From positions 1,088,001 through 1,152,000 of the forward strand of contig OZ218778.1 of assembly GCA_965112635.1 (NCBI GenBank): a stretch of DNA of 64,000 nucleotides, given 5' to 3'. The stretch's first letter is position 1. The number at the start of each line of letters is the position of its first letter. The DNA comes from an uncultured bacterium (GTDB lineage Bacteria; Oederibacteriota; Oederibacteriia; Oederibacteriales; Oederibacteriaceae). A program made the translations under genes and the position numbers. Below, in pieces: positions 9,894 through 27,043 of the stretch. The notes under the pieces were generated by a model, which was not told the DNA's origin, ran no database searches, and worked only from the letters and a program-made list of their open reading frames with translations.

Positions 9894-9914
9894 AGAGAAC
9901 TCCCGGGAGACATA

Positions 9915-11016: not shown

Positions 11017-11058
11017 CTAGGTTAATTGCCAATATTTAAAGACATCAGGAGGGTCACG

Positions 11059-12030
11059 ATGGAGTATACCAATCTGGGACGTACGGCTTTAAAGGTCAGC
11101 CGGTTTTGCCTGGGGACCATGAACTTCGGGCCTTTGGCCACCGAGGACGACAGCCATAAAATCATGGACCGGGCCTTGGAGCTGGGGATCAATTTTTTTG
11201 ACACGGCGGATGTTTACGGCTGGAAAAAGGGCGAGGGAGTGACAGAGCAGATCATCGGCAGGTGGTTCGGGCAGGGCGGGGGGAGAAGGGAAAAAGCCGT
11301 GCTGGCCACAAAGGTTTTCGGGGATATGGGCGACTGGCCCAACCAGTCCCGTTTGTCGGCCCTGCATATCATCAAGGCTTGCGAAGACAGCCTAAAACGC
11401 CTGCAAACAGACCATATCGACCTGTACCAAATGCACCATATCCATCCGGAGGCTCCCTGGGAAGAGATCTGGCAGGCCATGGAACAGTTGGTGAGGAGCG
11501 GCAAGGTCATTTATGTCGGGAGCAGCAATTTTGCCGCCTGGAACATCGCCCAGGCTAATGAAGCGGCCAAGAACAGGCATTTCTTGGGGCTGGTTTCCGA
11601 GCAAAGCCTGTATAACCTGAACGCCCGAACTATCGAATTGGAGGTAATCCCTGCCTGCCGTACTTATGGGCTGGGGTTGATATGCTGGAGCCCTTTGGCC
11701 GGCGGACTTTTGGGCGGGGTTCTGCGCAAAAACGCAAAGGGGAGAAGGACCCAGGAAAGGATGAAAGAAAATTTAAAAAAGAACCTGCCGAAAATAAAGG
11801 CCTATGAAAACCTTTGCGCCAAGCTGGGGGAAGAACCGGCCTTGGTAGGACTGGCCTGGCTTCTGGCCCAGCCGGCCGTGACCGCTCCGATCGTCGGCCC
11901 CCGCACCCAGGAACAACTGGAAGAAGCCGTACTGGCCTTAAAAGTAAAGCTGTCCAAAAAGACATTGGAGAAACTGGACCAGATCTTTCCTGGACCCGGG
12001 GGGGCAGCTCCCTGGGCCTATGCCTGGTGA
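11059..12030 (+). CDS. Aldo/keto reductase (EryBII/TylCII-like subfamily)
   Basis: LGTMNFG, FDTADVYG, LATK, DHIDLYQMHH, WSPLAGG, C-terminal APWAYAW. AGGAGG RBS before ATG 11059. Confidence 0.88.
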   Translation: MEYTNLGRTALKVSRFCLGTMNFGPLATEDDSHKIMDRALELGINFFDTADVYGWKKGEGVTEQIIGRWFGQGGGRREKAVLATKVFGDMGDWPNQSRLSALHIIKACEDSLKRLQTDHIDLYQMHHIHPEAPWEEIWQAMEQLVRSGKVIYVGSSNFAAWNIAQANEAAKNRHFLGLVSEQSLYNLNARTIELEVIPACRTYGLGLICWSPLAGGLLGGVLRKNAKGRRTQERMKENLKKNLPKIKAYENLCAKLGEEPALVGLAWLLAQPAVTAPIVGPRTQEQLEEAVLALKVKLSKKTLEKLDQIFPGPGGAAPWAYAW

Positions 12031-12048: not shown

Positions 12049-13437
12049 TTGCCCATTGAACCGCGGGAGCCGTTGTTCGAGCTGGCCAAGCCGCCGGTGA
12101 CCTTCACCAAAGGCGTGAAGTTCCCCAAGCCCGAAAAGATCATGATCTATGACGACACCCTCCGCGACGGGGAACAAATGCCCGGGGTGGCGTTCAGCCC
12201 GGAACAAAAGGTGGAGCTGGCCAAACTTTTGAGCGATATAGGCGTGGACGTGATGGACGTGGCTTTCCCCGCTTCCTCGGCCTCGGACTGCAAGGCCATC
12301 CAGCTCATCGTGAAGGCGCAGAAAAGGGGCGACATCCGGCCGGAGGTGGAGATCCTGGCCATGTGCCGGGGGGTCATGGAAGATATCGACAAGGTCGTGA
12401 ACACGGTCCAGGAGATCGGCGCCAAACCCGATGATGTCAGCGTGCTGATCCTGTCCACCTTCTCAGACCTGCATCTCAAGTACAAACTGGGCAAGGCACT
12501 CCTCAAAAGGGAAGGCCGTTCTCTGGACGAATGGCTGGACCTGCCGGTGGAGTTCTACCGCGACGCCAACATCAAGCTCATCACCGAAGCGATCGGTTAC
12601 GCCAGGCAAAAAGGGATCTCCAGGGTGGAATTCGCCTCGGAGGACGCTTCCCGGGGAGACGTGAACTACGCGGTAGCCTGGGCCAAAGCCTGCGTCAAAG
12701 CCGGGGGGACGCGGATGTGCTTTTCCGATACCTGCGGGGTCTTCACGCCGGAGGCCGTGGACCATTACATCCCGCCGCTCGTCAAGGCCCTGGGCGGGGT
12801 GCCGCTCACGGCCCACTTCCACAATGATTTCGGCATGGGCGCCTACAACACGGTCAGAGCCCTGAGCCGGGGAGCGACCTTTGCCAGCGTCACGGCCAAC
12901 GGCATCGGCGAGAGGGCCGGCAACGCGCCCCTGCATACGGTCGTGATGATACTCAAAAACCTCTACGGGGTTACTCTTCCCCGGTTCAAATACGAAAAAC
13001 TGACGGAGCTGCGCAAGGCCATAGAAAACGCCTCGGGTATACCCATGCAGCTCCACGAGCCCATCATCGGGGAGAACGTGTTTTCGCACGAGTCGGGCAT
13101 CCATACCGCGGCCATCGTCATCCATCCCTATATCTACCAGTTCATCCACGAGAAAGAGGTGGGAGGAAAGCAGAGGTTCGTGTTCGGGAAACACAGCGGC
13201 GCCGCCGCTGTCGAGGCGGTCATCAATAAATACAAGCAGGTCCTCGATAAAAACAACATAGCCGTAAGCCCGGAGCTCGTGGAGCAGGCCCTGGAGATGG
13301 TCAAGAAAAAAAGGGAAGAAATGATCCGGGACGGGAATACCGCGGAATTCATCAAAAAGTATTATGAAAACTGCAATAACTTGGGCATTTCCGAGGAAAA
13401 GCTCATCGAATATTTAATATCTAAAAAGAAGAAATGA
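12049..13437 (+). CDS. DRE-TIM acetyl-CoA condensing enzyme (homocitrate/isopropylmalate/citramalate synthase family) lacking the LeuA regulatory domain
   Basis: DDTLRDGEQMPG, HFHNDFG, NGIGERAGNA, FSHESGIH, GKHSG. Confidence 0.85.
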   Translation: MPIEPREPLFELAKPPVTFTKGVKFPKPEKIMIYDDTLRDGEQMPGVAFSPEQKVELAKLLSDIGVDVMDVAFPASSASDCKAIQLIVKAQKRGDIRPEVEILAMCRGVMEDIDKVVNTVQEIGAKPDDVSVLILSTFSDLHLKYKLGKALLKREGRSLDEWLDLPVEFYRDANIKLITEAIGYARQKGISRVEFASEDASRGDVNYAVAWAKACVKAGGTRMCFSDTCGVFTPEAVDHYIPPLVKALGGVPLTAHFHNDFGMGAYNTVRALSRGATFASVTANGIGERAGNAPLHTVVMILKNLYGVTLPRFKYEKLTELRKAIENASGIPMQLHEPIIGENVFSHESGIHTAAIVIHPYIYQFIHEKEVGGKQRFVFGKHSGAAAVEAVINKYKQVLDKNNIAVSPELVEQALEMVKKKREEMIRDGNTAEFIKKYYENCNNLGISEEKLIEYLISKKKK

Positions 13438-13462: not shown

Positions 13463-14455
13463 GTGAAAAAACAAGAAGGCCTGATCTCTGTGGTGGTGCC
13501 TGTTTATAATGAAGAGGGGAATATCGTTCCTTTTCTGGAACGGACCGAAAAGACCCTGGAAAAAACAGGCCACAACTATGAGATCATCTTTTGCCTGGAC
13601 CCTTCTCCTGACCACACCGAAGAAATTATCTGCCAGGCCATAGAAAAGGACCCCCAAGTGCGCCTGCTGGTGTTCAGCCGGAGATTTGGACAACCGGCCG
13701 CCACCTTGGCCGGCATTCATAACGCCAAGGGCGAAGCCGTGGTGGTAATCGATGTGGACCTGCAGGACCCTCCGGAGCTTATAGGGGAAATGGTCCAAAA
13801 ATGGGAAGAAGGCTATGATGTCGTTTATGCTAAGCGCAGGTCCAGAAAAGGCGAGACCTTCATCAAGGAAGCCGTGTCCCATGCCGGCTACAAATTGATC
13901 AGCGCCATCTCCGATGTCAATATCCCCAGAGATACCGGAGATTTTAGGCTGATCAACCGGCGGGTGGTAGACACTCTCAAGAGCCTCAAAGAAAGCCATG
14001 GTTTTTTGCGGGGCCTGGTGGCTTTCGTGGGTTTCAGGCAGACCGCCGTGGAGTATGACCGGGAGGAACGTGCTTCCGGCAGGGGTAAATATAACCGCTA
14101 TCTAGGTTCCCTCAAGATCGGCCTCAATGGGATCGTGAGTTTTTCCAGCCGTCCGTTACAGTGGGTATCCTTGCTGGGGGTCATGGTCGCCTGCTGCGGA
14201 TTTTTGCTGGCCTTGTGGTATATCATCCAAAAATGGATGATCCATTATGAGCTTACCCCGGGTTTGTCCACGACCGTGGTGGTGGTGACTTTTTTCTCCG
14301 GGGTTCAACTATTCTCGCTTGGGCTGATCGGTGAATATATCGGGCGCATATACGATGAGGTCAAACAGAGGCCACTCTATATCGTGGACCGGGAAATAGC
14401 ACATTCCAAAAAAAATGACGCGGTCAGTTCGATGAATAAGAGACCGGTGGCATGA
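13463..14455 (+). CDS. GT2 polyprenyl-phosphate glycosyltransferase (GtrB/YkoT-like)
   Basis: SVVVPVYNEE, FSRRFGQ, IDVDLQDPP, TGDFRL, two TMs with GLIGEYIGRIY. Confidence 0.9.
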   Translation: MKKQEGLISVVVPVYNEEGNIVPFLERTEKTLEKTGHNYEIIFCLDPSPDHTEEIICQAIEKDPQVRLLVFSRRFGQPAATLAGIHNAKGEAVVVIDVDLQDPPELIGEMVQKWEEGYDVVYAKRRSRKGETFIKEAVSHAGYKLISAISDVNIPRDTGDFRLINRRVVDTLKSLKESHGFLRGLVAFVGFRQTAVEYDREERASGRGKYNRYLGSLKIGLNGIVSFSSRPLQWVSLLGVMVACCGFLLALWYIIQKWMIHYELTPGLSTTVVVVTFFSGVQLFSLGLIGEYIGRIYDEVKQRPLYIVDREIAHSKKNDAVSSMNKRPVA

Positions 14456-15171
14456 GCAAGTGGCCTAAAAAACTGCCGACCCTGAACAAAGTCCAAAAAT
14501 CCATTGAAAATGATTTTGTAAAGAACTGGCACATGGAATTGGCCGGCAATACCAGGTACCGCTATATTGAAAAATTCAACCATTCCTATATTTTGAAACA
14601 CTGTCGCCAAGGGGGCAGGGTCCTGGAGATCGGGGCGGGCCTGGGGGAACATCTTTATTACGAGGACCTGACCAAAATTACAGAATATACCGCCCTGGAG
14701 TTAAGGCCGGCCATGGCCAGGATCATTAAAAAAAGGTTCCCGTTGGTCAAAGTGATCCTGGGAGATTGTCAGAAGAGATTCAAGGTCAGGGATGGTTATT
14801 TTGACCGTGTCGTGGCCGTCCATGTGCTGGAACATCTGCCCAATCTGCCAGCTACCCTGAAAGAGGTGCACAGAGTCCTCAAGCCAGGCGGAGAATTTTG
14901 TGTGGTCATTCCCTGTGAGGGAGGTTGGGCTTACGACATGGCGAGACGGCTGAGCGCCAAGAAACTTTTTAAACAGAAGTACGGAATGGATTATGAGTGG
15001 TTCACCAAAAGGCAGCATGTCAATTTACCCTGGGAGATCGACGAAGAGCTGGAACAATATTTTACTGTCAACAAAAGAGAATTTTTCCCTTTGAAAATTC
15101 CGATCGTGAGCTGGAATTTGGTCATCAGCATGATCTTAAAACCATTGCCGCGCAATCTGGTTAAAATTTAA
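14452..15171 (+). CDS. Class I SAM-dependent methyltransferase (paralog of 44973-45698)
   Basis: LEIGAGLG, VHVLEHLPNLPA, VIPCEGG. Confidence 0.85.
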   Translation: MSKWPKKLPTLNKVQKSIENDFVKNWHMELAGNTRYRYIEKFNHSYILKHCRQGGRVLEIGAGLGEHLYYEDLTKITEYTALELRPAMARIIKKRFPLVKVILGDCQKRFKVRDGYFDRVVAVHVLEHLPNLPATLKEVHRVLKPGGEFCVVIPCEGGWAYDMARRLSAKKLFKQKYGMDYEWFTKRQHVNLPWEIDEELEQYFTVNKREFFPLKIPIVSWNLVISMILKPLPRNLVKI

Positions 15172-15186: not shown

Positions 15187-16149
15187 ATGCAGATAAAAAA
15201 AGCTTTTGTGACCGGGGCAGCGGGATTTATCGGGAGCAATCTCGTCGATCGTCTGCTGGGAAAAGGGATCCAGGTGACGGGGTTCGATAACTTTTCCACG
15301 GGTTTCCACGAATTCATTGAAAACGCCAAAAAATCCCCCCATTTTAAAATGATCAAAGGCGATGTGCTGGACACCCCTGCCTTGACCAAAGCCATGGCCA
15401 GCTGTGATTTTGTCTTTCATTTTGCAGCCAATGCGGACGTGCGTTTTGGGACAGAGAAGCCCCGCAAGGACTTAGAGCAAAATACCGTGGCTACTTTCAA
15501 TGTCCTGGAGGCGATGAGTAGATGCGGGATCAAAAGGATAGCTTTTACTTCCACGGGTTCCATCTATGGCGAAGCCAACATCCATCCCACGCCTGAAAAC
15601 GCACCGTTCCCGGTGCAGACCTCCCTCTACGGGGCTTCTAAACTGGCCGGGGAAGGCCTGCTGGAAGCTTTTAGCGAAGGGTTCGGCATGCAGGTGTATA
15701 TATTCCGGTTCGTTTCCATTCTGGGAGAACGCTACACCCACGGCCATGTATTTGATTTTTATAAAAGTCTTCTGGCTAATCCCCACACTTTACGGGTTCT
15801 GGGCAACGGCAAACAGCGCAAATCCTATCTCTATGTCCAGGATTGCGTGGAAGCGGTGCTGCTGGCCATCGCCAAGACCAAACAGAAAGTGAATATTTTC
15901 AACCTGGGCACCAATGAATACATCGAAGTGGACCAGTCCGTGGGCTGGATCAGTGATTACCTGGGCGTGAAACCCAAGATCGTGCACGGCGGAGGGGACA
16001 GAGGCTGGGTGGGTGATAATCCTTTTATCTTTTTGGATACGGAGAAGATCCAATCCCTGGGTTGGAAGCCCAAGCTGACCATTAAGCAAGGGATATTGAA
16101 TACTTTGGATTATTTCAAACAAAATCCATGGTTGCTGGAGCGCCGATGA
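15187..16149 (+). CDS. NAD-dependent nucleotide-sugar epimerase/dehydratase
   Basis: TGAAGFIGS, YGASK catalytic motif, HGHVFDF. Confidence 0.9.
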   Translation: MQIKKAFVTGAAGFIGSNLVDRLLGKGIQVTGFDNFSTGFHEFIENAKKSPHFKMIKGDVLDTPALTKAMASCDFVFHFAANADVRFGTEKPRKDLEQNTVATFNVLEAMSRCGIKRIAFTSTGSIYGEANIHPTPENAPFPVQTSLYGASKLAGEGLLEAFSEGFGMQVYIFRFVSILGERYTHGHVFDFYKSLLANPHTLRVLGNGKQRKSYLYVQDCVEAVLLAIAKTKQKVNIFNLGTNEYIEVDQSVGWISDYLGVKPKIVHGGGDRGWVGDNPFIFLDTEKIQSLGWKPKLTIKQGILNTLDYFKQNPWLLERR

Positions 16150-17462
16150 AAGTCGCTGTCTTCGGGTTGTGGCATCTGGGATCGGTGACGGCCGCCTGCC
16201 TGGGTCAGGCAGGACACACGGTCACGGGTATAGAACCGGACAAAGACAAGGTGGCCGGTTTCAGACAGGGGAAGGCCCCCTTGTTTGAACCAGGCTTGGA
16301 TGAGCTGCTCAAAAAAGGAATAGATGGCGGCCGGCTGTCCTTTACTTCTAGCCTTGAAGAGGGACTGAAAGAGGCGCAAGTTCTATGGGTGACCTTTGAT
16401 ACGCCGGTGGACGACAAGGACCGCGCGGACACGGAGTTTGTATCCAAAAAGATCCAGGAGTGTTTTCCCTATCTCAGCTCTGGCATGACGGTTCTGATCT
16501 CATCCCAGATGCCGGTGGGTAGTACCGGGAAATTGCAGGACCTGTTCAATGCTCAATACACGGACAGAAAAGTGCGTTTCTGCTATTCGCCGGAAAATCT
16601 GAGGCTAGGTAAGGCCATTGAGGTCTTTACCCGGCCTGACCGGGTCGTGGTGGGGGCGCCTGACACGGAGTCAAGGAAGGCCATCCAGCAACTGCTTTCT
16701 CCGGTCACGGACCGGATCGAGTGGATGTCGGTAGCCTCCGCCGAGATGACGAAGCACGCTATTAACACATTTTTGGCGACCTCCGTAGTGTTCATCAATG
16801 AACTGGCCACCCTGTGCGAAAAGACGGGAGCTGATGCCAAGGAAGTGGAAAGGGGTCTTAAAACCGAGCAAAGGATCGGCCCTAAGGCCTATGTTTCGGC
16901 CGGCGGGGCTTTTGCTGGTGGGACCCTGGCCAGGGACGTGGTTTTTTTAAAGGAACTGAGCGAACAACAAGGCAGAAGCAATTCCCTTTTTGGGGCGGTG
17001 CTGCAGAGCAATGAATCCCATAAGCTGTGGTCCAGAAACAAACTGGCCGGAGTAATGGGAACACTCCAAGGAAAGAGCGTTGGGGTTCTGGGATTAGCCT
17101 ACAAGACCGGGACCAGTACCCTGCGGCGTTCCAGTGCCGTGGAGCTTTGCCGCTGGCTCAAGGAACAGGGAGCTAAAGTGAGCGCTTTTGACCCGGTCAT
17201 CAAGTCGCTACCCGCTGAACTCAGCCCGGTAATCCAGTTGAGTCCAGGGGTGGAAAAACTTTTTTTGGATAACGATGCCGTGGTGGTGGCCAATGAATGG
17301 CCGGAATTAAAGGCCCTGTCCCTGAAGGACCTTTTGGGTAAAGATAAGCGGTCCGTTATCATCGATCCCAATGGATTTTTTGCAGGTCAGCCGTTGCCCC
17401 AAGGAGTAAAGTATTGCAGGGTAGGGGCGTCGGAACAGCACCTGAAAGACCAGAAAGGATAA
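16146..17462 (+). CDS. UDP-glucose/GDP-mannose dehydrogenase-like protein lacking the catalytic Cys
   Basis: GLWHLG, FDTP, SPENLRLG, AEMTKHAINTFLA, GLAYK. AFAGGTLARD replaces GFGGSC(L/F)PKD. ATG 16146 overlaps the upstream stop. Confidence 0.85.
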   Translation: MKVAVFGLWHLGSVTAACLGQAGHTVTGIEPDKDKVAGFRQGKAPLFEPGLDELLKKGIDGGRLSFTSSLEEGLKEAQVLWVTFDTPVDDKDRADTEFVSKKIQECFPYLSSGMTVLISSQMPVGSTGKLQDLFNAQYTDRKVRFCYSPENLRLGKAIEVFTRPDRVVVGAPDTESRKAIQQLLSPVTDRIEWMSVASAEMTKHAINTFLATSVVFINELATLCEKTGADAKEVERGLKTEQRIGPKAYVSAGGAFAGGTLARDVVFLKELSEQQGRSNSLFGAVLQSNESHKLWSRNKLAGVMGTLQGKSVGVLGLAYKTGTSTLRRSSAVELCRWLKEQGAKVSAFDPVIKSLPAELSPVIQLSPGVEKLFLDNDAVVVANEWPELKALSLKDLLGKDKRSVIIDPNGFFAGQPLPQGVKYCRVGASEQHLKDQKG

Positions 17463-17466
17463 AACT

Positions 17467-18336
17467 TTGAAATTAAAAGGTAAAAAAGCGCTGATCACGG
17501 GTGCCAACCAGGGCCTGGGTCTGGCTATTGCCGAGGCTTTTGTGGACGAAGGGGCTGATATTTTTATCGGGGCCAGGAATCAGATCCTTCTGGAGCAGAA
17601 GGCCCTGCGGCTTAGGGAAAAAGCCGTTCCCGGCCAGCAGATCAATACTTTCAAGCTCGATGTGGCAGACCGGGTGTCTGTGGATGCTTTTATGAGCAGA
17701 GTCAACCAAGCTTGGGGGGCCTTGGATATTCTGGTCAATAACGCCGGTGTCTATGGTCCTAAAGGGTTTATTGAAGAGGTGAACTGGAAAGAATGGGTAG
17801 AGGCCATCCAGATTAATCTGATGGGGACCGTGTATATGTGCCGGGTATGTCTACCGCTTCTAAGGAAATCTCCCCGGGGTAAGATCATCAATCTGTCCGG
17901 CGGCGGCGCCACTTCTCCCCAGCCGGGGATTTCAGCCTACGGGGCCAGCAAGGCCGGGGTGGTACGTTTTACCGAGACCCTGGCCGAAGAATTGAGAGAG
18001 AGCGGGGTGGACGTCAATATCGTCGCACCGGGAGCTTTGAACACCAGGCTTTTGGACGAAGTGCTGGAGGCTGGTCCGGAGAAAGTCGACAAAAAATTTT
18101 ATGAAAAGGCTGTGGAACAGAAAAAAAGGGGAGGCACGCCTCTTTCTAAAGGAGCCGACCTCTGTGTATATCTGGCTAGCGAAAAGAGCGATGGGATCAC
18201 GGGCAAGCTCATCAGTGCGGTGTGGGACCCCTGGGAAACCCTGCAGGAGCACAAGGGCGATCTGGACAAAAAGGACGTTTACACCCTGCGGAGGATCGTT
18301 CCCAAGGACAGGGGCTTAAAGTGGGGACTGGACTAA
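17467..18336 (+). CDS. Short-chain dehydrogenase/reductase
   Basis: TGANQGLG, NNAG, YGASK. Confidence 0.9.
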   Translation: MKLKGKKALITGANQGLGLAIAEAFVDEGADIFIGARNQILLEQKALRLREKAVPGQQINTFKLDVADRVSVDAFMSRVNQAWGALDILVNNAGVYGPKGFIEEVNWKEWVEAIQINLMGTVYMCRVCLPLLRKSPRGKIINLSGGGATSPQPGISAYGASKAGVVRFTETLAEELRESGVDVNIVAPGALNTRLLDEVLEAGPEKVDKKFYEKAVEQKKRGGTPLSKGADLCVYLASEKSDGITGKLISAVWDPWETLQEHKGDLDKKDVYTLRRIVPKDRGLKWGLD

Positions 18337-18337
18337 A

Positions 18338-19336
18338 ATGAAAATAGGCATCATTGGATGCGGTTTGATCGGGAAAAAGCGGGCGGCCAATGCGGTAGGT
18401 CATCAGGTCGCAGCGGTGGCGGATATAGACCTGACCAGGGCCAAAGAGCTGGCGGGGGGATATCCCGGGTGTCTGGCTGTTGCCGATTGGAAAAAAGTCG
18501 TTGCTATCTCCGAGATCGAGGCGGTGGTCGTGGCCACGACCCATGACCTACTATCACCGATCGGGCTTGCCTGCCTCAAGGCGGGGAAGCATGTTCTGCT
18601 GGAAAAACCCGCGGCGCGTTCCAGGAAAGAGCTCCTGCCCCTGGCTAAACTAGCTAAACAAAAGAAAAGGGTGATCAAGGTCGGGTTTAATCACCGTTTT
18701 CACCCTGCCGTTCAAAAAGCCAAGGAGATACTGGAAACGGGAGGGTGCGGGCCGCTGCTTTTCATCCGGGCAAATTACGGGCACGGCGGAAGGATCGGGT
18801 ATGACCGCGAGTGGCGGGCTCAGAAAAAAGTTGCGGGCGGGGGCGAAATGATCGATCAGGGCATGCATCTCATTGACCTGGCCAGATATTTTATGGGCGA
18901 TTTTCACGAGGTCTACGGTTATGTGCCAACTTATTTTTGGGATATGAAGGTGGAAGATAACTCTTTCCTGCATTTAAAGACCAGGAAGGGGCAGACCGCG
19001 TGGCTGCATGCCAGCTGGACCGAGTGGAAGAATATGTTCTCCCTGGAGATCTATTCCCGCACCGCCAAATTGCACATGACCGGCCTGGGAGGGAGTTACG
19101 GCCAGGAACAGCTAGTCCACTACCAAATGCTTCCGGAAATGGGTCCGCCGCAAAAAACGGTCTATGATTTTCCAGGCCAGGACCTTTCCTGGGAGTTGGA
19201 GTTCAAGGATTTTGTGCTAGCCATTGAAACAGGCCGAAGAGCATGCGGAGACATCGAGGATGGTTTGGCCGCCCTGGCGGTGACAGATGCTGTATATAAA
19301 ATGGCTGGTAAAAAGGGCATTGCAGCCAAGCTCTGA
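18338..19336 (+). CDS. Gfo/Idh/MocA family oxidoreductase
   Basis: GCGLIG, HVLLEKP, GFNHRF, GGGEMIDQGMHLID. Confidence 0.9.
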   Translation: MKIGIIGCGLIGKKRAANAVGHQVAAVADIDLTRAKELAGGYPGCLAVADWKKVVAISEIEAVVVATTHDLLSPIGLACLKAGKHVLLEKPAARSRKELLPLAKLAKQKKRVIKVGFNHRFHPAVQKAKEILETGGCGPLLFIRANYGHGGRIGYDREWRAQKKVAGGGEMIDQGMHLIDLARYFMGDFHEVYGYVPTYFWDMKVEDNSFLHLKTRKGQTAWLHASWTEWKNMFSLEIYSRTAKLHMTGLGGSYGQEQLVHYQMLPEMGPPQKTVYDFPGQDLSWELEFKDFVLAIETGRRACGDIEDGLAALAVTDAVYKMAGKKGIAAKL

Positions 19337-19443
19337 ACGAACGTTTTTACCTGAAAGATTTTTCTCAAGCCTGAAACCCCCTGACCTTACCTTATTTTTA
19401 GTGGTAGGATAGTGGATTAAAGACAGGAGGAGAGCGAAAAACA

Positions 19444-20427
19444 ATGATTATTACCCGCAGTCCTTTAAGGATCACTTTGGGAGGGGGAGGCACGGACCTT
19501 CCTTCCTATTACCGCAAATTCGGCGGTTTTTTGATCGCTGCGGCCATTGATAAATACGTTTACATCACCCTGCACCAAACCTTTGTAGATGATTTTATCT
19601 TGAAGTATTCCCTGATGGAACGAGTCCAGAAGGTCGAACAGATCAAGCATCCTATCGTGAGAGAAGCCCTCAAGCTGGCAGAAGTGGATATTGCCAGCCT
19701 GGAAATCTCTTCCATGGCCGATATTCCGGCCGGGACAGGGCTTGGTTCCTCAGGCAGTTTTACCACGGCTTTATTGAAAGCCCTGCATACCCACAAGAAA
19801 AACCTGATCCAACCCCAGGAGCTGGCCGAGCAGGCCTGCCTCATCGAATTGGAAAAGCTCAAAGAACCTATCGGTAAACAGGACCAGTATATTGCCGCCT
19901 ATGGCGGGGTGACCTGTTTTAATTTCAATGCTGATGATACGGTTACAGCCAGACCCTTAAAAGTTTCCAGAGAAACGCTTTATAACCTGGAAGACAACCT
20001 GCACCTTTTTTTCACAGGTTATTCCCGGTCGGCCTCGGGGATTTTGCGGGACCAGGACGAGAAAAGCAAAAAGGATGACCAGTCGGTCATAGAAAATCTG
20101 CACCATATCAAGGAGCTGGGTCTTAAAAGCCAAAAGGCCTTTGAAGAGGGCGACCTGGATGAGTTTGGCAAGATTCTTGACGAGCACTGGAAATACAAAA
20201 GGAAAAGGTCGCAGGGAATATCCAATCCCAAGATAGACGAATGGTACGAGTTGGGGCTGAAAAATGGTGCTTTGGGAGGCAAATTGATCGGCGCAGGAGG
20301 AGGCGGATTTTTGTGTTTTTATGCCAAGGACAAATCCCGGCTGAGGCGTGCGATGATCCAGGCTGGTCTTCAGGAAGTGCGTTTTCGTTTTGACTATAAT
20401 GGGACCGAGGTCGTGATCCAGTCATGA
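19444..20427 (+). CDS. GHMP sugar-phosphate kinase (HddA/LmbP-like)
   Basis: PLRITLGGGGTD, PAGTGLGSS, GKQDQY, GGKLIGAGGGG. Confidence 0.9.
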   Translation: MIITRSPLRITLGGGGTDLPSYYRKFGGFLIAAAIDKYVYITLHQTFVDDFILKYSLMERVQKVEQIKHPIVREALKLAEVDIASLEISSMADIPAGTGLGSSGSFTTALLKALHTHKKNLIQPQELAEQACLIELEKLKEPIGKQDQYIAAYGGVTCFNFNADDTVTARPLKVSRETLYNLEDNLHLFFTGYSRSASGILRDQDEKSKKDDQSVIENLHHIKELGLKSQKAFEEGDLDEFGKILDEHWKYKRKRSQGISNPKIDEWYELGLKNGALGGKLIGAGGGGFLCFYAKDKSRLRRAMIQAGLQEVRFRFDYNGTEVVIQS

Positions 20428-21128
20428 CACCGGCAGTGGCCATCCTGGCCGGGGGTCTGGCCACACGTCTGCGCCCCCTTACCGAAAAGATCCCCAAAGC
20501 CATGGTTGCTTTGAATGGCCTGCCTTTTATCCACCACCAAATGACCCTTCTCAAGGACAAGGGGATCAACGAGGTCGTCCTCTGCGTCAGTTATCTGGGA
20601 GAACAGATAAAAGATTACGTGGGGGACGGGTCGCGTTTTGGAGTGAAGGTCAGTTATTCCTGGGACGGAAAAGAACTGCTAGGTTCGGGCGGGGCGCTAG
20701 TCAAAGCCAGGACCCTTTTAGGCGACTCCTTTTGCATTTTGTACGGGGATTCTTACCTGGACGCTGATTATGCGGAAATTTTCAGGTTTTTCAAAAGCTC
20801 CGACAGGCTGGGCCTGATGACCGTTTTTAAAAATAATGGGAAGTTCGACCGGAGTAATGTAATATTTGAGAATGGCAGTATCGTCCGCTATGATAAAAAG
20901 TCAAAAGACCCGGCAATGGTTTACATTGATTATGGCTTGAACCTTTTGACCCAGCGGGCTTTGGACCTGGCTCCAGCGGGAAACTTTGACCTGGCCCAGC
21001 TTTTGGGCAGACTGGTGGCAGAGGGCCAACTGGCGGGGTTTGAGGTCAAAAACAGGTTTTATGAGATTGGCACACCCGCAGGAATAAAGGACACCGAAGA
21101 ATACATCAGGACCAGGGAGAAAAAATGA
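20424..21128 (+). CDS. Sugar-1-phosphate nucleotidyltransferase (HddC/LmbO-like)
   Basis: LAGGLATRLRP...PK, LLGSGG, YGDSY, FYEIGT. Confidence 0.88.
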   Translation: MTPAVAILAGGLATRLRPLTEKIPKAMVALNGLPFIHHQMTLLKDKGINEVVLCVSYLGEQIKDYVGDGSRFGVKVSYSWDGKELLGSGGALVKARTLLGDSFCILYGDSYLDADYAEIFRFFKSSDRLGLMTVFKNNGKFDRSNVIFENGSIVRYDKKSKDPAMVYIDYGLNLLTQRALDLAPAGNFDLAQLLGRLVAEGQLAGFEVKNRFYEIGTPAGIKDTEEYIRTREKK

Positions 21129-21703
21129 ACCTTAAGCAGTATGTGGACAATTTCCTTAAAGAAACAGAAGAAATCGTCAAAACCATCGACCGGGACGCTA
21201 TCGTCCGCGCGGTGGAAATCCTTAGAAAGATCCGTGACCAGCAGGGCAGGCTTTTTATCCTTGGGGTAGGCGGCAGCGGAGCCAATGCCTCTCATGCGGT
21301 CAATGATTTCAGGAAAATAGCCGGGATGGAAGCTTACGCCCCGACCGACAATGTTTCTGAGCTCACGGCATGGACCAACGACAGCGGATGGGAAACGGTG
21401 TTCGAGGAATGGCTCAAGGAATCCAAACTAAAAGCCGGCGACGGATTGTTAGTGTTCTCGGTGGGCGGCGGTACGGCGACCACTTCTCTCAATCTAGTCA
21501 GAGCCATGGATCTGGCCAAGAAGGTAAAGGCCAACATCGTGGCCGTGGTCTCCCGCGACGGAGGCCATGCCGCCAAGGTCGCGGATGCCTGCGTCCTGAT
21601 CCCCGTGGTCTCAGCCGAACGCATCACTCCCCATTGCGAAGGGTGGCAGGGCGTAGTCTGGCATATGCTGGTCAACGCTCTCGTCTCTGCCCAAGGGAAG
21701 TAA
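21125..21703 (+). CDS. gmhA: SIS-domain phosphoheptose/phosphooctose isomerase (GmhA/LmbN-like)
   Basis: GVGGSGANASH, TAWTND, FSVGGG, PHCEGWQGVVWH. The symbol is family-level only; substrate chain length is unknown. Confidence 0.82.
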   Translation: MNLKQYVDNFLKETEEIVKTIDRDAIVRAVEILRKIRDQQGRLFILGVGGSGANASHAVNDFRKIAGMEAYAPTDNVSELTAWTNDSGWETVFEEWLKESKLKAGDGLLVFSVGGGTATTSLNLVRAMDLAKKVKANIVAVVSRDGGHAAKVADACVLIPVVSAERITPHCEGWQGVVWHMLVNALVSAQGK

Positions 21704-21705
21704 GC

Positions 21706-22290
21706 TTGACCAAAGCCGTGTTCCTGGACCGGGACGGGGTTCTCAACCGACTGGTCTACAATTCCGCCACCACAGAATACGAGTCCCCGCATTTTTTAAA
21801 AGACCTGGAAATGTTGCCTAACCTCAGGGAACCCCTCCTGGCCCTGCAGAAAGAAGGATACCCGCTCTTTGTGGTCTCCAACCAGCCGAGTTATGCCAAG
21901 GGAAAAACAAGCCTGGAAAACATCAAGGCCATCGCTGAAAAGGTCAGGGAGCACATGGTTCAGCAAGGTGTTGCCATCACCGAGTATTATTACTGCTACC
22001 ACCACCCGGACGGCATCGTAGCCGGATTCAGCGGACCCTGCGAGTGCCGCAAGCCCAGCCCGTTTTTCCTTCGTCAGGCGGAGAAGAAATACGGTCTAGA
22101 TTTGGGGCAAAGCTGGATGGTCGGGGACGAGGACAGGGATATTTTGTGCGGGCAGGCCGCCGGGGTCAAAACCATCGTCCTCAATAATGCAAATTCAGCC
22201 AAAAAACGAGGCCAGGCAAAGCCCGATTTCAGGGCTAAGGACCTGGCAGATGCCGTCCAAAGGATTATGAAAGAAAGCAAGAAAACCTAA
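21706..22290 (+). CDS. gmhB: HAD-IIIA sugar-bisphosphate phosphatase (GmhB/LmbK-like)
   Basis: FLDRDGVLN, VSNQ, CYHHP...CECRKP, MVGD...D. Start set at TTG 21706 just after the gmhA stop. The symbol is family-level only. Confidence 0.88.
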   Translation: MTKAVFLDRDGVLNRLVYNSATTEYESPHFLKDLEMLPNLREPLLALQKEGYPLFVVSNQPSYAKGKTSLENIKAIAEKVREHMVQQGVAITEYYYCYHHPDGIVAGFSGPCECRKPSPFFLRQAEKKYGLDLGQSWMVGDEDRDILCGQAAGVKTIVLNNANSAKKRGQAKPDFRAKDLADAVQRIMKESKKT

Positions 22291-22330
22291 AAAAAGGTAT
22301 AATGTTCAGCGAATTTAAGGAGGTTTCCTT

Positions 22331-23047
22331 TTGTCTTTAAAAGAGTTAAAAATAAAGATCTTTGCCGACGGCGCTGACTTGAACGGCATGGTGCAGTTGT
22401 CCAAAGTAGGATGGGTCAAGGGATTTACCACCAATCCCACCCTGATGCGCAAGGCAGGCATCGTGGATTACGAGAAGTTCGCCAAAGAAGTCCTGCTGGC
22501 CATCCCACAGCTACCCATTTCTTTTGAGGTTTTTTCAGATGATTTTGCGGACATGGAGCGGCAGGCCAGGAAGATCGCGAGTTGGGGTAAGAGTGTATAT
22601 GTGAAGATCCCGGTGACCAATACCAAGGGGGAATCCTCGGCACCCCTTATCCGCAAGCTGGCCCAGGACGGCCTGCAGCTCAACGTCACGGCTATCACCA
22701 CCATCAACCAGGTCAGAGAGGTCTCGGGAGCTTTAAAGGCCGGCGTGCCGGGCATTATCTCCGTTTTCGCAGGCAGGATCGCTGATACCGGGGTGGACCC
22801 GGTCCCCCTGATGCAAGAATGTCTCAGGATCGCGCATGCCAAACCCGCGTTAGAACTTCTCTGGGCCAGCAGCCGGGAAGTGCTCAACCTCCTGCAGGCG
22901 GAAGCCATTGGTTGCGATATCATTACCGTCACCAACGATATACTCAAAAAAGCTTCCCAGCAGCTGGGAATGGATCTGGGGGCCATGTCCCTGGAAACCG
23001 TAAAAATGTTCGACAAGGACGCTACTTCTGCCGGATTTAAGTTGTAA
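22331..23047 (+). CDS. Small transaldolase-family protein (cluster-encoded; LmbR-like position)
   Basis: FADGAD, GFTTNPTL, ISFEV, VKIP (Schiff-base Lys), NVT, SVFAGR, LWAS. Confidence 0.9.
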   Translation: MSLKELKIKIFADGADLNGMVQLSKVGWVKGFTTNPTLMRKAGIVDYEKFAKEVLLAIPQLPISFEVFSDDFADMERQARKIASWGKSVYVKIPVTNTKGESSAPLIRKLAQDGLQLNVTAITTINQVREVSGALKAGVPGIISVFAGRIADTGVDPVPLMQECLRIAHAKPALELLWASSREVLNLLQAEAIGCDIITVTNDILKKASQQLGMDLGAMSLETVKMFDKDATSAGFKL

Positions 23048-23081: not shown

Positions 23082-24140
23082 ATGAAAGATTTGTGCGGAG
23101 GCCACAAGCGGAGGTTCCATTTTCTAGGAGAGGCTGTCTTGGGACTACTTTTGGCAGTGATTGTCTGGCAGGGGGCAGGATGCCATAAGAAAAAACCACA
23201 GGTGGTTGCTCCGGAGGAGCCGCAGATTCCTGGGATTTTTGCCACTGAGGAAAACAACCCGGCAGCAGCGAACAAACCCGTTGTACGGACAGAGACTTCC
23301 CCTGAAGTGTTCGACCGGATCATCACCCTGCAATTAGGACACCCCTTTGGGTTGGCTTTTTCTCGGGAAGGGCTTTTATACATAGCGGATACTTACAATT
23401 GTAGGATCGTGGTCGTTGATAGCAAAGGAATCATCAAAAAAACATGGGGGAAACAAGGTTCTGGTCCCGGTGATTTTTTATTTCCTTTCAGCATTGCTGT
23501 GAATGGGGACGGAGAAGTTTATGTGGCTGATTCCAAAAACCATCGGATACAGAAGTTCAATAAGAACGGAAACTATCTACTGAGTTGGGGCAGGTTGGGA
23601 ACTGGGCACGGAGAGTTCCAGTTCCCCTATGGCGTGGCTGTGGATACCAAAGGACTCGTTTATGTGGTGGATACTTTGAATTACCGTATCCAAAAATTTA
23701 CTGGATCTGGAAAATATATTGGACAGTTCGGAGAAAAAGGCAAACAGCCCGGAGCTTTTAATTATCCGTTCGCCTTGGCTATCAGCAGGAAGGGGCATGT
23801 CTATGTGGCTGACCAAGCCAATCACCGCATAGAGAAATTTACCCTTTCCGGAGATTACATTCTGAGCTGGGGGGCCTATGGCAATAAGAACCCCGAAGAT
23901 TTTGATAACCCTCTAGGAGTTTATGTGGATGACCATGAGCGGGTCTATGTTTCTGACACAGGAAACAAAGCTGTAAAGCTCTTTGACAGCGAGGGGCGTT
24001 TCATCGATATTTTTTCAGGATCTCAACAGCCGCTGGACCCTCTGGCCGACCCTGCCGGTTTAACTATGGACTCCGCAGGAAAGGTCTATGTGGCTGATCC
24101 GGAGAATAGCCGCATCTGCGTATTCCGGTTCCATATGTAG
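23082..24140 (+). CDS. NHL-repeat beta-propeller, probable lipoprotein
   Basis: Six repeats of the form F.FP.GVAVD..G.VYVADT.N.RIQKF. Hydrophobic segment followed by GAGC lipobox-like Cys. Confidence 0.85.
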   Translation: MKDLCGGHKRRFHFLGEAVLGLLLAVIVWQGAGCHKKKPQVVAPEEPQIPGIFATEENNPAAANKPVVRTETSPEVFDRIITLQLGHPFGLAFSREGLLYIADTYNCRIVVVDSKGIIKKTWGKQGSGPGDFLFPFSIAVNGDGEVYVADSKNHRIQKFNKNGNYLLSWGRLGTGHGEFQFPYGVAVDTKGLVYVVDTLNYRIQKFTGSGKYIGQFGEKGKQPGAFNYPFALAISRKGHVYVADQANHRIEKFTLSGDYILSWGAYGNKNPEDFDNPLGVYVDDHERVYVSDTGNKAVKLFDSEGRFIDIFSGSQQPLDPLADPAGLTMDSAGKVYVADPENSRICVFRFHM

Positions 24141-24190: not shown

Positions 24191-27043
24191 ATGGCTAAAG
24201 CTCTAAAGAGTTCAAAAAAAACAAAAGTGTCCGGTACCACGGCCCCCAGGCCCACCCTTAGGTGGATGGAACGAATATCAGGCCTGATCTATGGCGTATC
24301 CCAGCCGGCCCCAGGAGAGGGGGGGGATCCTCGGGCAAATTCGAGACAGATAAAAAAACAGGATAAACTTCAAAAGACCCAAACAGCCACATTTTTTCTC
24401 TCTCCAGAAGCTTATCAAAATGATGCCAAGAACTTTATTAAGGATCTATTCGTCGTTGGCTTGTTTGTATTCCTTTTATTATTGCTTTTGATATCCTTGT
24501 TGTCTGGACATTTTTTACTGGCTCTCCTAGCTATTTTTTTTGAAAGCCAATTGCTCGATCATATGCCTTGGGAACATATTTTCCCGGGTCAAAATAGAAC
24601 AAAAATATCCCTGCTTATCCTGCATTATTTTTTTGCCCCCCCCTTGCTTTTAAGTCTTGCCGCTGTGTTAGCCATCATTGGGCAAGTCAATTTTATCCTG
24701 CATCAGTTTAGGCCGGGTGCTTTATATTACCTGATGGCCATTATCTGTACTTTCGGATATGAAACCAAAGCCGCTCCAATGTCCGTTGAGCCAGGGCCTC
24801 CAGCGCCCATCAAAGGCAAAGAGATTAAAGCTCGTACGGTCCAGGGAGAGCCTCGCTTGAACCCATTCTATATTTTTGTCCCTATTCTGATGTTTGCCTG
24901 GGCTTTTTCGTATTTTATTATGGATATTTATCCCTATATGGGATTAGTGCTGTGGCTCCTGGGCGTCGGTCTTTTTATGTTCGGATTATGGAGAGCAGAG
25001 AATATCAAATATCCCCAGAATCTTGAACCCTTTACCAATAACCAAAAGATAGGCCTGGCGGCCATCCTCGTTACAGCCTTTATAGTCAGAGTCTTTAAAT
25101 TACAAGATATTCCACATGGCCTGGTCCATGACGAATGCTCCCGGTTGCTTGTATCTTTTTCGCTGCCTCTTCCTTTTTCGGTCAATGAATGGAACTATCC
25201 CAATATGCCGTTATTGCTCAATGGTCTTTACAGGTTTTTATTCTCGGACAACACCATCGCGTTCAGGATGGCGAGCGTGGTGCCGGGAACCCTCACCGTT
25301 TATCTGGTCTTTCAGTTTACCCGGTTTTGTTTCGGCAACCGGGCCGGGTTGTTCGCCGCATTCTTAAGCGCCTTCACTTTTCTGCCTATCGCCATCAGTC
25401 GCATGACCTACGACCAAGTGCATATTCCCTTCGCGACCGTCGGGGTGACCTACTTTTTTTACAAGGGGTTGAAGCTGCGAAGGAAGCTGGACTTTGCCTG
25501 GGCAGCCTGTTTCTTGTGTTTCGGCCTGCATTCCTACGCTGCCCTCAGGATACTCCCCTTTATTATCGCTGCTTTTTTGATCTATCTCTGTTTCAGGGAT
25601 AGAAAACTTTTAACGGAAAATAAGTGGGGGTTTTTGGTCTTTGCAGCGGTGACCCTGGTGCTGATGGGCCCCCTCATTTATGAAATGTTCGGCAAGGGAT
25701 CAGACCTGTGGCGCCGTCCCGTGGGCCTGTTCATTATCAGAGACACTCCCCTGTGGCAATGGCCCGCTTTTGTCACTAACGCGGTCATCATGATCTTGAA
25801 AGATTATTTTTACAGCGCCACGATCTATCTAGCCTACTGCATACGGTGGTTGGGTTTGCCGGAAAAGCCGGTTTTTGATCTCATTACTGCCGCCTGTTGC
25901 ATCGCTTCTCTGGGGATCGTTTTCCGGAGGATCAAAGAGCCTATCTATATTTTGATCTTAATGACCGCTTTTCTCAGCCTGTTGCCCCAAGCGGGTTCCA
26001 TGTTCCACTATCCAGTAGCCCGGACGCTTGGGCTGCTTCCTCCGGTATTTATGCTGGCAGGGCTTTTCCTGGGGAGAGGCTATGAATTGACCCTAAAAAC
26101 ATCTTCGCGTTTTATGAAAATCATTTTGCAGGGTCTATTTGCGGTTATTTTGGGCTATGTTTTCATTGCCAATGTCAGGATGTATTTTGTGACCAATGCG
26201 GAATATGTGGATTACTTCCCTTATGAGTCCGGTTTGCTTGGAAACGAAGGCATTTATGAGTGTGCCAGGCAGGAGATGGCCTTTGACAAGTTGGGCTATG
26301 CGGTCACCAGTGAATTGGCCAGTCATCCGACTTCTATTGTGGTCACCGCTGGAAGGGTTGAAAATCTTCAGGGGTACGCCTCTTACCTAGATATGCCTTA
26401 CACAAGGGTGTTAAAAAAAGGTTCTCCCGGCGTTGTTTATTTCTTTTGGCCTGACAAGACCAATGAAAGATTGAATCTATTAAAGGCCTTTTATCCCGCG
26501 GGCAAATACGGGAATTTTCAGAACCCCAAAACAAAAGATGTGCTGTATTGGTCCTATATCGTCAGCCAGGACGAACTGAAGGCCAATCAGGGGCTCAACG
26601 TCCAATACTACAACAATTTGGATTTTGCGGGTAAGCCGGTCACCCAGACCGCAGGGGAAGAGGTCGCTTATTATTGGAGAGAAAACCATCAACCGGTCAA
26701 AGCGCCCTTCAGCGCCCGTTTTTCGGGAGGTTTCTATTTTTCAACCGACCAAACCATCACTTATACTTTAGAAGCCATGGATCAAACTAGGTTTTTTATT
26801 GACGATAAGCTTGTCCTGTTTATTAAATCTTCCAACCGCATCACCAGCGTGGCTAAAGCCATTTTCCTGAAAGCCGGACCTCACCGTTTAAGAGTAGAAA
26901 CCATAGAAAGGTCAGGTCTGGGTGGGCTAGGCCTGTTCTGGAACGGGCCCTATTCCGGGCCCAAAGCGATCATTCCCAGAGAATCAATGTTGCCGACCTC
27001 AACTATGGAACGACTGTTCACCCTTAAAAAGATCAAACAATAA
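24191..27043 (+). CDS. GT-C (ArnT/PMT-like) membrane glycosyltransferase with C-terminal PA14 domain, paralog A1
   Basis: Multi-TM. R.FKLQDIPHGLVHDE loop motif, GLHSYAALR. C-terminal GLNVQYYNN...PFSARFSG...GPHRLRVE...LFWNGP is PA14-like. Confidence 0.8.
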   Translation: MAKALKSSKKTKVSGTTAPRPTLRWMERISGLIYGVSQPAPGEGGDPRANSRQIKKQDKLQKTQTATFFLSPEAYQNDAKNFIKDLFVVGLFVFLLLLLLISLLSGHFLLALLAIFFESQLLDHMPWEHIFPGQNRTKISLLILHYFFAPPLLLSLAAVLAIIGQVNFILHQFRPGALYYLMAIICTFGYETKAAPMSVEPGPPAPIKGKEIKARTVQGEPRLNPFYIFVPILMFAWAFSYFIMDIYPYMGLVLWLLGVGLFMFGLWRAENIKYPQNLEPFTNNQKIGLAAILVTAFIVRVFKLQDIPHGLVHDECSRLLVSFSLPLPFSVNEWNYPNMPLLLNGLYRFLFSDNTIAFRMASVVPGTLTVYLVFQFTRFCFGNRAGLFAAFLSAFTFLPIAISRMTYDQVHIPFATVGVTYFFYKGLKLRRKLDFAWAACFLCFGLHSYAALRILPFIIAAFLIYLCFRDRKLLTENKWGFLVFAAVTLVLMGPLIYEMFGKGSDLWRRPVGLFIIRDTPLWQWPAFVTNAVIMILKDYFYSATIYLAYCIRWLGLPEKPVFDLITAACCIASLGIVFRRIKEPIYILILMTAFLSLLPQAGSMFHYPVARTLGLLPPVFMLAGLFLGRGYELTLKTSSRFMKIILQGLFAVILGYVFIANVRMYFVTNAEYVDYFPYESGLLGNEGIYECARQEMAFDKLGYAVTSELASHPTSIVVTAGRVENLQGYASYLDMPYTRVLKKGSPGVVYFFWPDKTNERLNLLKAFYPAGKYGNFQNPKTKDVLYWSYIVSQDELKANQGLNVQYYNNLDFAGKPVTQTAGEEVAYYWRENHQPVKAPFSARFSGGFYFSTDQTITYTLEAMDQTRFFIDDKLVLFIKSSNRITSVAKAIFLKAGPHRLRVETIERSGLGGLGLFWNGPYSGPKAIIPRESMLPTSTMERLFTLKKIKQ

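Follow-up and report, generated by a model that had tools for sequence, protein, structure and literature searches.

A transaldolase-primed nucleotide-sugar cassette in Oederibacteriota with family-level likeness to the lincosamide octose route

Introduction

The closest described counterpart of the genes considered here is the GDP-octose sub-pathway of lincosamide biosynthesis in Streptomyces lincolnensis and S. caelestis. As described in a 2025 review and in work of the Janata group, this route comprises a transaldolase (LmbR), an octulose 8-phosphate isomerase (LmbN), a kinase (LmbP), a phosphatase (LmbK) and a guanylyltransferase (LmbO), together with an epimerase (LmbM), a dehydrogenase (LmbL), an NAD(P) oxidoreductase (LmbZ/CcbZ) and an aminotransferase (LmbS) (PMC12945683, PMC4351081). 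According to the same two sources, LmbM, LmbL, CcbZ and CcbS jointly convert GDP-octose to GDP-lincosamide (PMC12945683, PMC4351081). A similar set of families is encoded by a nine-gene operon at positions 15187-23047 of a 64,000-nucleotide stretch of DNA, referred to throughout as the window, from an uncultured bacterium of the phylum Oederibacteriota (assembly GCA_965112635.1, contig OZ218778.1, positions 1,088,001 to 1,152,000 of the forward strand). The operon evidently encodes a real, widespread and apparently uncharacterized transaldolase-primed nucleotide-sugar pathway that is predicted to be coupled to lipid-linked periplasmic glycosylation. The reading that we favor, at a probability of roughly 0.55, is that of a lincosamide-like route to a nucleotide-activated higher-carbon sugar (an octose) which would be displayed outside the cytoplasm.

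The nine-gene set, or cassette, shares with the lincosamide sub-pathway the same eight clustered enzyme families, a transaldolase as an integral first step and a pair made up of a UDP-glucose dehydrogenase (UGDH)-family protein and a Gfo/Idh/MocA enzyme. It differs in having no aminotransferase, nonribosomal peptide synthetase or mycothiol/ergothioneine genes and in having an additional classical short-chain dehydrogenase/reductase (SDR), for which the lmb sugar genes offer no equivalent. Furthermore, the cassette is adjoined by genes for a polyprenyl-phosphate glycosyltransferase of family 2 (GT2), a methyltransferase and GT-C glycosyltransferases, and it occurs in many non-actinobacterial phyla. 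The lincosamide octose route reportedly uses ribose 5-phosphate and is said to be the only characterized pathway with this enzyme set. Within it, LmbL and CcbZ reportedly perform a 6,8-dehydration.

The other described system that resembles the cassette is the GDP-D-glycero-alpha-D-manno-heptose pathway of S-layer glycan and capsule loci, with which it shares four families and the same logic (isomerization, phosphorylation at C1, removal of the distal phosphate and nucleotidylation). Unlike that pathway, the cassette has a fixed transaldolase, which is fused to other enzymes in some organisms, and its isomerase shows gaps at two functional regions. To our knowledge, characterized GDP-heptose clusters carry no transaldolase.

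Literature searches, in which subscription journals were mostly outside coverage, found no paper joining a transaldolase, hddA and gmhA. GDP-octose was found only in a lincosamide review (PMC12945683), and octulose 8-phosphate was found only in connection with pentose-phosphate metabolism or lincomycin. Among the matches listed, papers on octoses, polysaccharides and bacteria dealt with branched octoses or unrelated matters, and no paper describing the cassette was found.

Gene content and organization

The original prediction had placed nine contiguous enzyme families at 15187-23047 and this is borne out by the open reading frame (ORF) listing and by Pfam and NCBIfam matches, which arrange them head to tail on the + strand. 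Its statement that eight Lmb-type families co-occur here with an extra SDR also holds, and the genes recur as one conserved unit across loci. The nine genes are as follows.

15187..16149, + strand: extended SDR of the NAD-dependent epimerase/dehydratase family, in the LmbM-type position (PF01370, 176 bits)
16128..17462, + strand: UGDH-family dehydrogenase of the three-domain UDPG_MGDP_dh type, in the LmbL-type position (TIGR03026, 304 bits, cut-off 189.8)
17467..18336, + strand: classical SDR (FabG-like), a candidate ketoreductase (adh_short, 178.9 bits)
18338..19336, + strand: Gfo/Idh/MocA NAD(P) oxidoreductase, in the LmbZ/CcbZ-type position (PF01408, PF22725, PF02894)
19444..20427, + strand: GHMP sugar-phosphate kinase of the HddA/WcbL type, in the LmbP-type position (NF049969 HddA, 167 bits, cut-off 600)
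20424..21128, + strand: sugar-1-phosphate nucleotidyltransferase, in the LmbO/HddC-type position (best NCBIfam match MurU, 119 bits)
21125..21703, + strand: SIS-domain ketose/aldose phosphate isomerase, a distant GmhA relative, in the LmbN-type position (TIGR00441, 55.7 bits, cut-off 209.45)
21706..22290, + strand: HAD-IIIA sugar-bisphosphate phosphatase, in the GmhB/LmbK-type position (NF006506, 120.9 bits, cut-off 178; TIGR01656, 116 bits, cut-off 84)
22331..23047, + strand: TIGR02134-type transaldolase, in the LmbR-type position (359.9 bits, cut-off 281.95)

Neighboring genes in the set overlap or are separated by 1-40 nucleotides, with the single exception of a 107-nucleotide gap at 19337-19443. 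The listed ORF start of the phosphatase (21370) was corrected to a TTG at 21706, which lies 3 bases past the SIS stop and is followed by FLDRDG. For the UGDH-like gene an alternative start is possible at an ATGA overlap (16146). The epimerase scores about equally against the GalE, LegB and RmlB models of NCBIfam, in each case below the cut-off.

Conservation and mobility of the cassette

The distribution of the cassette was scanned with the transaldolase as query and one genome per species, which gave 21 loci whose content was read by tblastn with the window proteins. These loci span Ignavibacteriota, Acidobacteriota, Elusimicrobiota, Verrucomicrobiota, Myxococcota, Margulisiibacteriota, Bacillota and others. 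The SIS gene accompanies the transaldolase in 19 of the 21 loci (the exceptions being L017 and L018) and the kinase does so in 15. All nine genes are found in window order in L020 (Candidatus Aquilonibacter) and L024 (a Verrucomicrobiota metagenome-assembled genome), while L009 has all nine on two strands and L023 has eight. The eight Lmb-type families are together also in L009, L020, L024, L038, L048 and L049. Since the same families are found in the same order in unrelated phyla, the co-location of the nine genes is beyond chance. In the nine-gene loci, orthologs of the epimerase show 60-67% identity and those of the Gfo/Idh/MocA enzyme 49-63%. The classical SDR is co-conserved with its two neighbors at 45-60% identity (L009, L020, L023, L024, L037, L038, L042, L043, L048 and L049).

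A search of a plasmid collection revealed a collinear nine-gene cluster, with 38-65% identity, on the chromid of Rhizobium jaguaris CCGE525 (L048; NZ_CP032695.1, at about 962-975 kb), where it is preceded by a GT2 gene and a GtrA-family gene. The order there is GT2, GtrA-family gene, epimerase, dehydrogenase, SDR, Gfo, kinase, transferase, SIS, HAD and transaldolase, and the GtrA-family gene between GT2 and epimerase lies at L048:4425-4826. After the R. jaguaris cluster come transposase genes of the IS66 and Mu types and a gene for a group II intron-type reverse transcriptase. Plasmid 3 of Lawsonia intracellularis (L049) also carries all nine genes, with generic annotation only. In the transaldolase tree, sequences of the window's phylum occur at at least five separate places among other phyla, and this scattered placement points to repeated transfer. 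The nine-gene set is evidently a mobile cassette.

The transaldolase gene of the Lawsonia locus overlaps one for a lysylphosphatidylglycerol-synthase-TM-domain protein, and the cassette there is flanked by two proteins of ~1090 residues without Pfam matches.

The transaldolase as a pathway enzyme

Synteny, gene fusions and the phyletic pattern link the transaldolase with the isomerase and the phosphatase. These ties support its role as the predicted first enzyme of the pathway, integral rather than housekeeping. Alignment to 1vpx and 3s0c places a Lys in VYVKIPVT and a Phe in SVFAGR (the KIP and S-x-F-x-GR segments). We take the Lys to be the Schiff-base lysine, and the Phe is presumably of the transaldolase type, as opposed to the Tyr of fructose 6-phosphate aldolases. 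Judged by these residues, the enzyme has a complete active site, that of a transaldolase rather than an aldolase.

Fusions were sought among the best 150 representatives of 622 (E <= 1e-30), which include 13 proteins of more than 300 residues. Four of these 13 are HAD-transaldolase fusions (P0122, P0125, P0134 and P0151), one is a transaldolase-SIS fusion (P0130), one carries a HAD fragment (P0137) and five have the transaldolase domain alone. Of the remaining two of the 13, P0167 joins a transaldolase to a Radical_SAM_2/PDZ module and P0223 joins one to a NUMOD3 motif, either of which may be a true fusion or a gene-calling artefact. Two further HAD-transaldolase proteins, outside these 13, are P0318 and P0353.

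The phyletic pattern was read from 99 species genomes of the phylum. The TIGR02134-type transaldolase is present in 11 of them and the cassette-type SIS protein is present in the identical 11 (G000, G011, G015, G017, G018, G027, G033, G035, G045, G048 and G050), which belong to seven families; because relatives are not independent, this is a pattern and not a statistic. The window's genome carries a second, fsa-type transaldolase, a type that follows family lines in 41 of the 99 genomes. Among the 11 cassette genomes, a two-query search found the fsa type only in G000 and G045, and the cassette-free sister genomes of the other nine have neither type. The possibility that a housekeeping transaldolase lies here by chance was rejected, as the synteny, the fusions and the identical distribution all speak against it.

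A transaldolase of the same type, with 47% identity, is found on plasmid p3211-1 of Streptomyces sp. 3211 (L047) together with genes for a major facilitator superfamily (MFS) transporter, a D-arabinono-1,4-lactone oxidase and the hexitol phosphatase HxpB and with many insertion sequence elements. Its membership in an lmb-like cluster was considered and rejected on account of the transporter, oxidase and phosphatase genes, and the locus is a different use of this transaldolase type. No protein named LmbR is among the 120 listed relatives of P0173, the most actinobacterium-like representative by amino-acid composition.

The Cys-less dehydrogenase and the tailoring block

The second gene of the cassette encodes a protein whose alignment with UDP-glucose dehydrogenases spans its entire length. 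It resembles the UDP-glucose/GDP-mannose 6-dehydrogenases in having three domains, a TIGR03026 score above the cut-off and a conserved E-x-x-K-x-x-x-N segment, but it reads AGGTLARD where PDB entry 4a7p reads GGSCFPKD. Throughout the cassette subfamily, Thr and Arg replace the catalytic Cys and the Lys of GGxCxxKD. We take this Cys to be the UGDH nucleophile, as in established UGDH enzymology. All 10 of the cassette orthologs share this Thr-for-Cys motif (the window, L009, L020, L023b, L024, L038, L042, L043, R. jaguaris and Lawsonia). The motif GGTL[A/G]RD is present in all 120 of the 120 best database relatives, which are 52-58% identical and include the window's own protein, while ordinary UGDH genes in L010 and L023 retain the Cys. 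Those Thr-type relatives that bear a name in the source databases are called UDP-glucose 6-dehydrogenase or UDP-glucose dehydrogenase family protein, and only generic UGDH clusters were found in the ESM Atlas.

Since the thiol is missing, a second oxidation that would give the acid is not expected, and this dehydrogenase probably oxidizes an exocyclic carbinol just once. Its assignment as an ordinary UGDH that forms a uronic acid was rejected, given the Thr at the Cys position in the window, in the cassette orthologs and in every one of the best relatives.

The dehydrogenase gene lies with those for the epimerase, the SDR and the Gfo/Idh/MocA enzyme in what is referred to here as the tailoring block. 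Orthologs of the dehydrogenase (>=49% identity) are present in four of the 99 genomes of the phylum, and three of the four also have the transaldolase. The two genes are ~1 kb apart in G045, and in the fourth genome (G038, 76% complete) the contig ends directly after the Gfo gene. A 6,8-dehydration needs a hydroxyl at C8, and the steady pairing of the block with the transaldolase thus fits a C8 backbone better than a C7 backbone, short of proof. Among solved structures, sugar C-3 dehydrogenases and other dehydrogenases come closest to the Gfo/Idh/MocA enzyme (6a3f, 7xr9).

The activation enzymes

The kinase, transferase, isomerase and phosphatase all miss the NCBIfam equivalog cut-offs for the corresponding heptose enzymes (GmhA, 55.7 of 209.45 bits; HddA, 167 of 600; GmhB, 120.9 of 178; HddC, 90.4 of 300), cut-offs that are strict in that only 1 of 14 control genomes passes GmhA and 1 of 14 passes GmhB. 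They are evidently not ordinary Hdd/Gmh enzymes. The isomerase aligns to the GmhA structure 5i01 with 45.8 bits, with a four-residue gap opposite a helix and a four-residue insertion in the phosphate-binding loop. In GmhA this helix carries the catalytic Glu. The nucleotidyltransferase scores 119 bits on MurU, 90 on HddC and 89 on ManC-like models of NCBIfam, and among solved structures 105.8 bits on MurU (4y7t) and 71.7 bits on HddC (6jq8).

Closer relatives of the heptose enzymes are found elsewhere in the genome. On the GmhA model, a further SIS gene (L029:9396-9983) reaches 165 bits, compared with 55.8 for the cassette protein, and another HAD gene scores 163.7 bits on GmhB, compared with 122 for the cassette phosphatase. 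A second HddA-like kinase, 39% identical to that of the cassette, is encoded at G000:C1:459000-478900 (L034). It belongs to an ABC-transporter glycan locus with two epimerase/reductase genes, a gene for a flavoprotein resembling L-2-hydroxyglutarate oxidase and a CDP-glucose-type transferase gene, and no SIS, HAD or transaldolase gene was found in that locus. These paralogs suggest that the genome has a dispersed heptose-type kit which appears separate from the self-contained kit of the cassette.

Predicted glycosyl transfer and export

In periplasmic glycosylation systems with three components (GtrA/GtrB/GtrX, ArnC/ArnT and PgfS-type), a GT2 with a C-terminal membrane anchor is followed by a polytopic GT-C enzyme. 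The same arrangement is seen around the cassette, with the difference that the GT-C proteins carry PA14 and occur as several paralogs, that the donor sugar would be made by the cassette and that the genome has no GtrA-family gene. The genes adjoining the cassette are as follows.

13463..14455, + strand: GT2 of the polyprenyl-phosphate glycosyltransferase type (ArnC/PgfS/GtrB-like; PF00535, 109.5 bits)
14452..15171, + strand: class I S-adenosylmethionine-dependent methyltransferase (Methyltransf_11/23/25)
23082..24140, + strand: NHL-repeat beta-propeller protein, of uncertain membership in the system (NHL, 150.9 bits; ScyF-like, 181 bits, below the cut-off)
24191-27043, 27152-30064 and 30167-33031, + strand: three tandem GT-C glycosyltransferases, each with PMT_2 and a C-terminal PA14 (PMT_2 and PA14 matches)

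The GT2 scores 268 bits on PgfS and 181 bits on ArnC, both below the NCBIfam cut-offs, and has two C-terminal hydrophobic segments (237-255 and 268-286), as in polyprenyl-phosphate glycosyltransferases. Orthologs precede these sugar genes in L037, L042, L043 and L048, with identities of 65% in G033, 68% in G027, 71% in G038 and 62% in R. jaguaris. The earlier proposal that the upstream GT2 loads the sugar on a lipid carrier gains from this: the GT2 stands as a conserved partner (62-71% identity) with C-terminal membrane segments and GT-C genes downstream, and the loading itself stays a prediction. Each of the three PMT_2/PA14 proteins has 950-970 residues and 8-12 hydrophobic segments, and weak GT-C relatives (22%) are encoded beside the cassette in L035, L039 and L040. 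Transfer of the sugar to polyprenyl phosphate and its periplasmic attachment by the GT-C enzymes would be expected and is the best-supported reading of these genes.

The methyltransferase is probably a sugar O-methyltransferase and a variable accessory of the cassette. A 46% ortholog is found at the equivalent place in L037 and other methyltransferase genes lie beside the cassette in L042, L037, L009, L023 and L024, while none was found at the equivalent place in L043 or L048. The NHL protein has a hydrophobic segment at 12-30, and only weak look-alikes (22-27%) were found in L035 and L036.

PMT_2 GT-C genes continue beyond the tandem triplet. At least six paralogs, five of them with PA14, are encoded within window positions 24191-59254 (starting at 24191, 27152, 30167, 33939, 53105 and 56321; the gene at 33939 is on the - strand and has no PA14). 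A membrane protein of 940 residues and 12 segments without a Pfam match is encoded at 45653-48475, and two polytopic proteins without Pfam matches are encoded at 49690-53069.

Proposed pathway and alternatives

In the octose pathway proposed here, the transaldolase would transfer a C3 unit from fructose 6-phosphate or sedoheptulose 7-phosphate onto ribose 5-phosphate to give octulose 8-phosphate, which the SIS isomerase would convert to octose 8-phosphate. The kinase, phosphatase and nucleotidyltransferase would then yield an NDP-octose. The epimerase, the Cys-less dehydrogenase and the Gfo enzyme may carry out side-chain oxidation and dehydration (a 6,8-dehydration), and the extra SDR may reduce the resulting ketone in place of the transamination by LmbS, giving an 8-deoxy-octose that the methyltransferase may O-methylate. 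The GT2 would pass the sugar to polyprenyl phosphate and, after flipping, the PMT_2/PA14 GT-C enzymes would attach it to a surface glycan or protein. The eight-carbon backbone is predicted by analogy with the lincosamide route, which has been solved experimentally, and C8 appears more likely than C7.

Several observations weigh against this pathway. The likeness to the lincosamide enzymes is at the level of families and not of sequence kinship, and no DegT-family (LmbS-type) aminotransferase gene was found in the operon or in the flanks of L009, L020, L023 and L024; two DegT genes lie in the divergent operon of the window (6774-9893). The transferase is nearer to MurU than to HddC in both NCBIfam and PDB scores, which does not single out GDP as the nucleotide. 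In G033 (L037) the block lacks the UGDH-like gene and has a methyltransferase gene (L037 15334-16206) in its place between epimerase and SDR, so that the block can exist without the dehydrogenase. No GtrA-type flippase (PF04138) was found in the genome, where ArnE/F-type proteins were not searched for. The cassette kinase scores at least as high on HddA (167 bits) as the other HddA-like kinase of the genome (151 bits), and its nearest solved relatives are heptose kinases (3k85 with 171.8 bits, 4usm/4usk and 4n3o). This likeness does not separate C7 from C8, since LmbP is described as a kinase of the same logic (PMC4351081). In L020 the transaldolase gene is followed by a GT9 (heptosyltransferase-family) gene. 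Nine of the 11 cassette genomes have no fsa-type transaldolase, so that a supply role for the cassette enzyme is possible there. Finally, the stand-alone transaldolases of L017, L018 and L047 nest among the cassette ones, so that there is no special cassette clade and the tree cannot settle C7 versus C8. The interpretation given in the original prediction is thus upheld in part: the conserved unit, the tie to the transaldolase, the GT2 partner and the missed Hdd/Gmh cut-offs speak for it, while the Lmb likeness stays at the family level.

The kinase structures, the GT9 gene, the missing fsa-type enzymes and the inseparable stand-alone transaldolases would all suit a modified NDP-heptose pathway, which is possible without being probable. 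In such a pathway the transaldolase would raise the supply of sedoheptulose 7-phosphate for divergent GmhA, HddA, GmhB and HddC enzymes, and the four redox enzymes would tailor a C7 sugar, for example by oxidation and epimerization at C6 or C4. Hdd/Gmh models do match all four activation enzymes and are the top models for the kinase, isomerase and phosphatase, MurU scoring higher for the transferase. However, sedoheptulose 7-phosphate is a general intermediate of the pentose-phosphate pathway that is made by transketolase, and a hard-wired or fused transaldolase is therefore not needed for a heptose. Also at odds with a heptose product are the occurrence of transaldolase and cassette isomerase in the identical 11 of 99 genomes, the presence of another transaldolase and of closer GmhA-, GmhB- and HddA-like genes elsewhere in the genome, the wide margins by which the four equivalog cut-offs are missed and the failure of the searches to find literature joining transaldolase, hddA and gmhA.

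The nine genes might instead be two unrelated modules that happen to adjoin, with the epimerase, UGDH-like, SDR and Gfo enzymes tailoring a UDP-hexose and the five downstream genes making a separate heptose or octose. A five- or six-gene core without the UGDH-like/SDR/Gfo block does occur (L004, L006-L008, L014, L015, L019, L021, L035, L036, L039, L040 and L044), and the halves are swapped in order in L038 and L049. Wherever the block is seen, however, it adjoins the core (L009, L020, L023, L024, L037, L038, L041/L042, L048 and L049). Moreover, three of the four phylum genomes with the dehydrogenase ortholog also have the transaldolase, the fourth being the one whose contig breaks off after the Gfo gene, and a Cys-less dehydrogenase is not expected to make the usual UDP-glucuronate; two separate modules are on this evidence improbable. 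Slighter still is the chance that the transaldolase uses another acceptor, such as a hexose 6-phosphate or a triose or tetrose derivative, and leads to a nine-carbon or differently configured sugar. The sequence does not fix the acceptor, and both the phosphate loop and the catalytic helix of the isomerase depart from those of GmhA. We know of no precedent for such a route, and the sole characterized pathway with this enzyme set reportedly uses ribose 5-phosphate. The role of LmbR in that pathway is given in PMC4351081.

Implications

What is new here is the subfamily-wide change from Cys to Thr, the exact phyletic match of transaldolase and isomerase and the R. jaguaris cluster as a test bed. 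That cluster is complete and collinear and resides in a culturable organism, which makes the question directly testable. If the product is an octose, a class of sugar so far known from no more than a few antibiotics would turn out to be a common component of microbial surfaces. This would bear on antigen structure, on phage receptors and on glycan analysis, which seldom looks for C8 sugars. An octose product would also provide an evolutionary source for the lincosamide sugar pathway, and the annotation of a large Cys-less subfamily as 'UDP-glucose 6-dehydrogenase' would be corrected. If the product is a heptose, the cassette would still be a distinct, widespread and uncharacterized route with its own precursor supply.

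A more far-reaching proposal is offered tentatively, as less likely than not. The cassette might make an NDP-8-deoxy-octose, a hydroxy analogue of lincosamine that would often be methylated, which a lipid carrier and PMT-like GT-C enzymes would place on surface glycans or threonine-rich surface proteins in many phyla and, by transaldolase matches, in some methanogens. A C8 sugar would then be widespread and overlooked, and the sugar half of lincomycin would have been recruited from an envelope cassette.

Neighboring genes in the window

Directly upstream of the GT2 gene and in the same direction are genes for an aldo-keto reductase (11026-12030) and for an HMGL-like protein that resembles isopropylmalate/homocitrate synthases without the regulatory domain (12049-13437). 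Neither was found beside the cassette in L004-L024. A promoter-like site is located at 10988-11016.

The divergent operon at 6139-10871 (- strand) encodes a second ArnC-like GT2 with C-terminal membrane segments, two DegT aminotransferases, a methyltransferase and a hexapeptide acyltransferase, and it looks like a second module for a lipid-linked (N-acyl amino) sugar. Farther downstream, positions 37110-45698 (+ strand) encode a B12-binding radical SAM enzyme, an epimerase, two GT2s, a second Gfo/Idh/MocA protein, a TylF-type O-methyltransferase and further methyltransferases. This region is another sugar-tailoring module of the same locus. An IS110-family transposase gene lies at the edge of the glycan locus (1753-2799, - strand).

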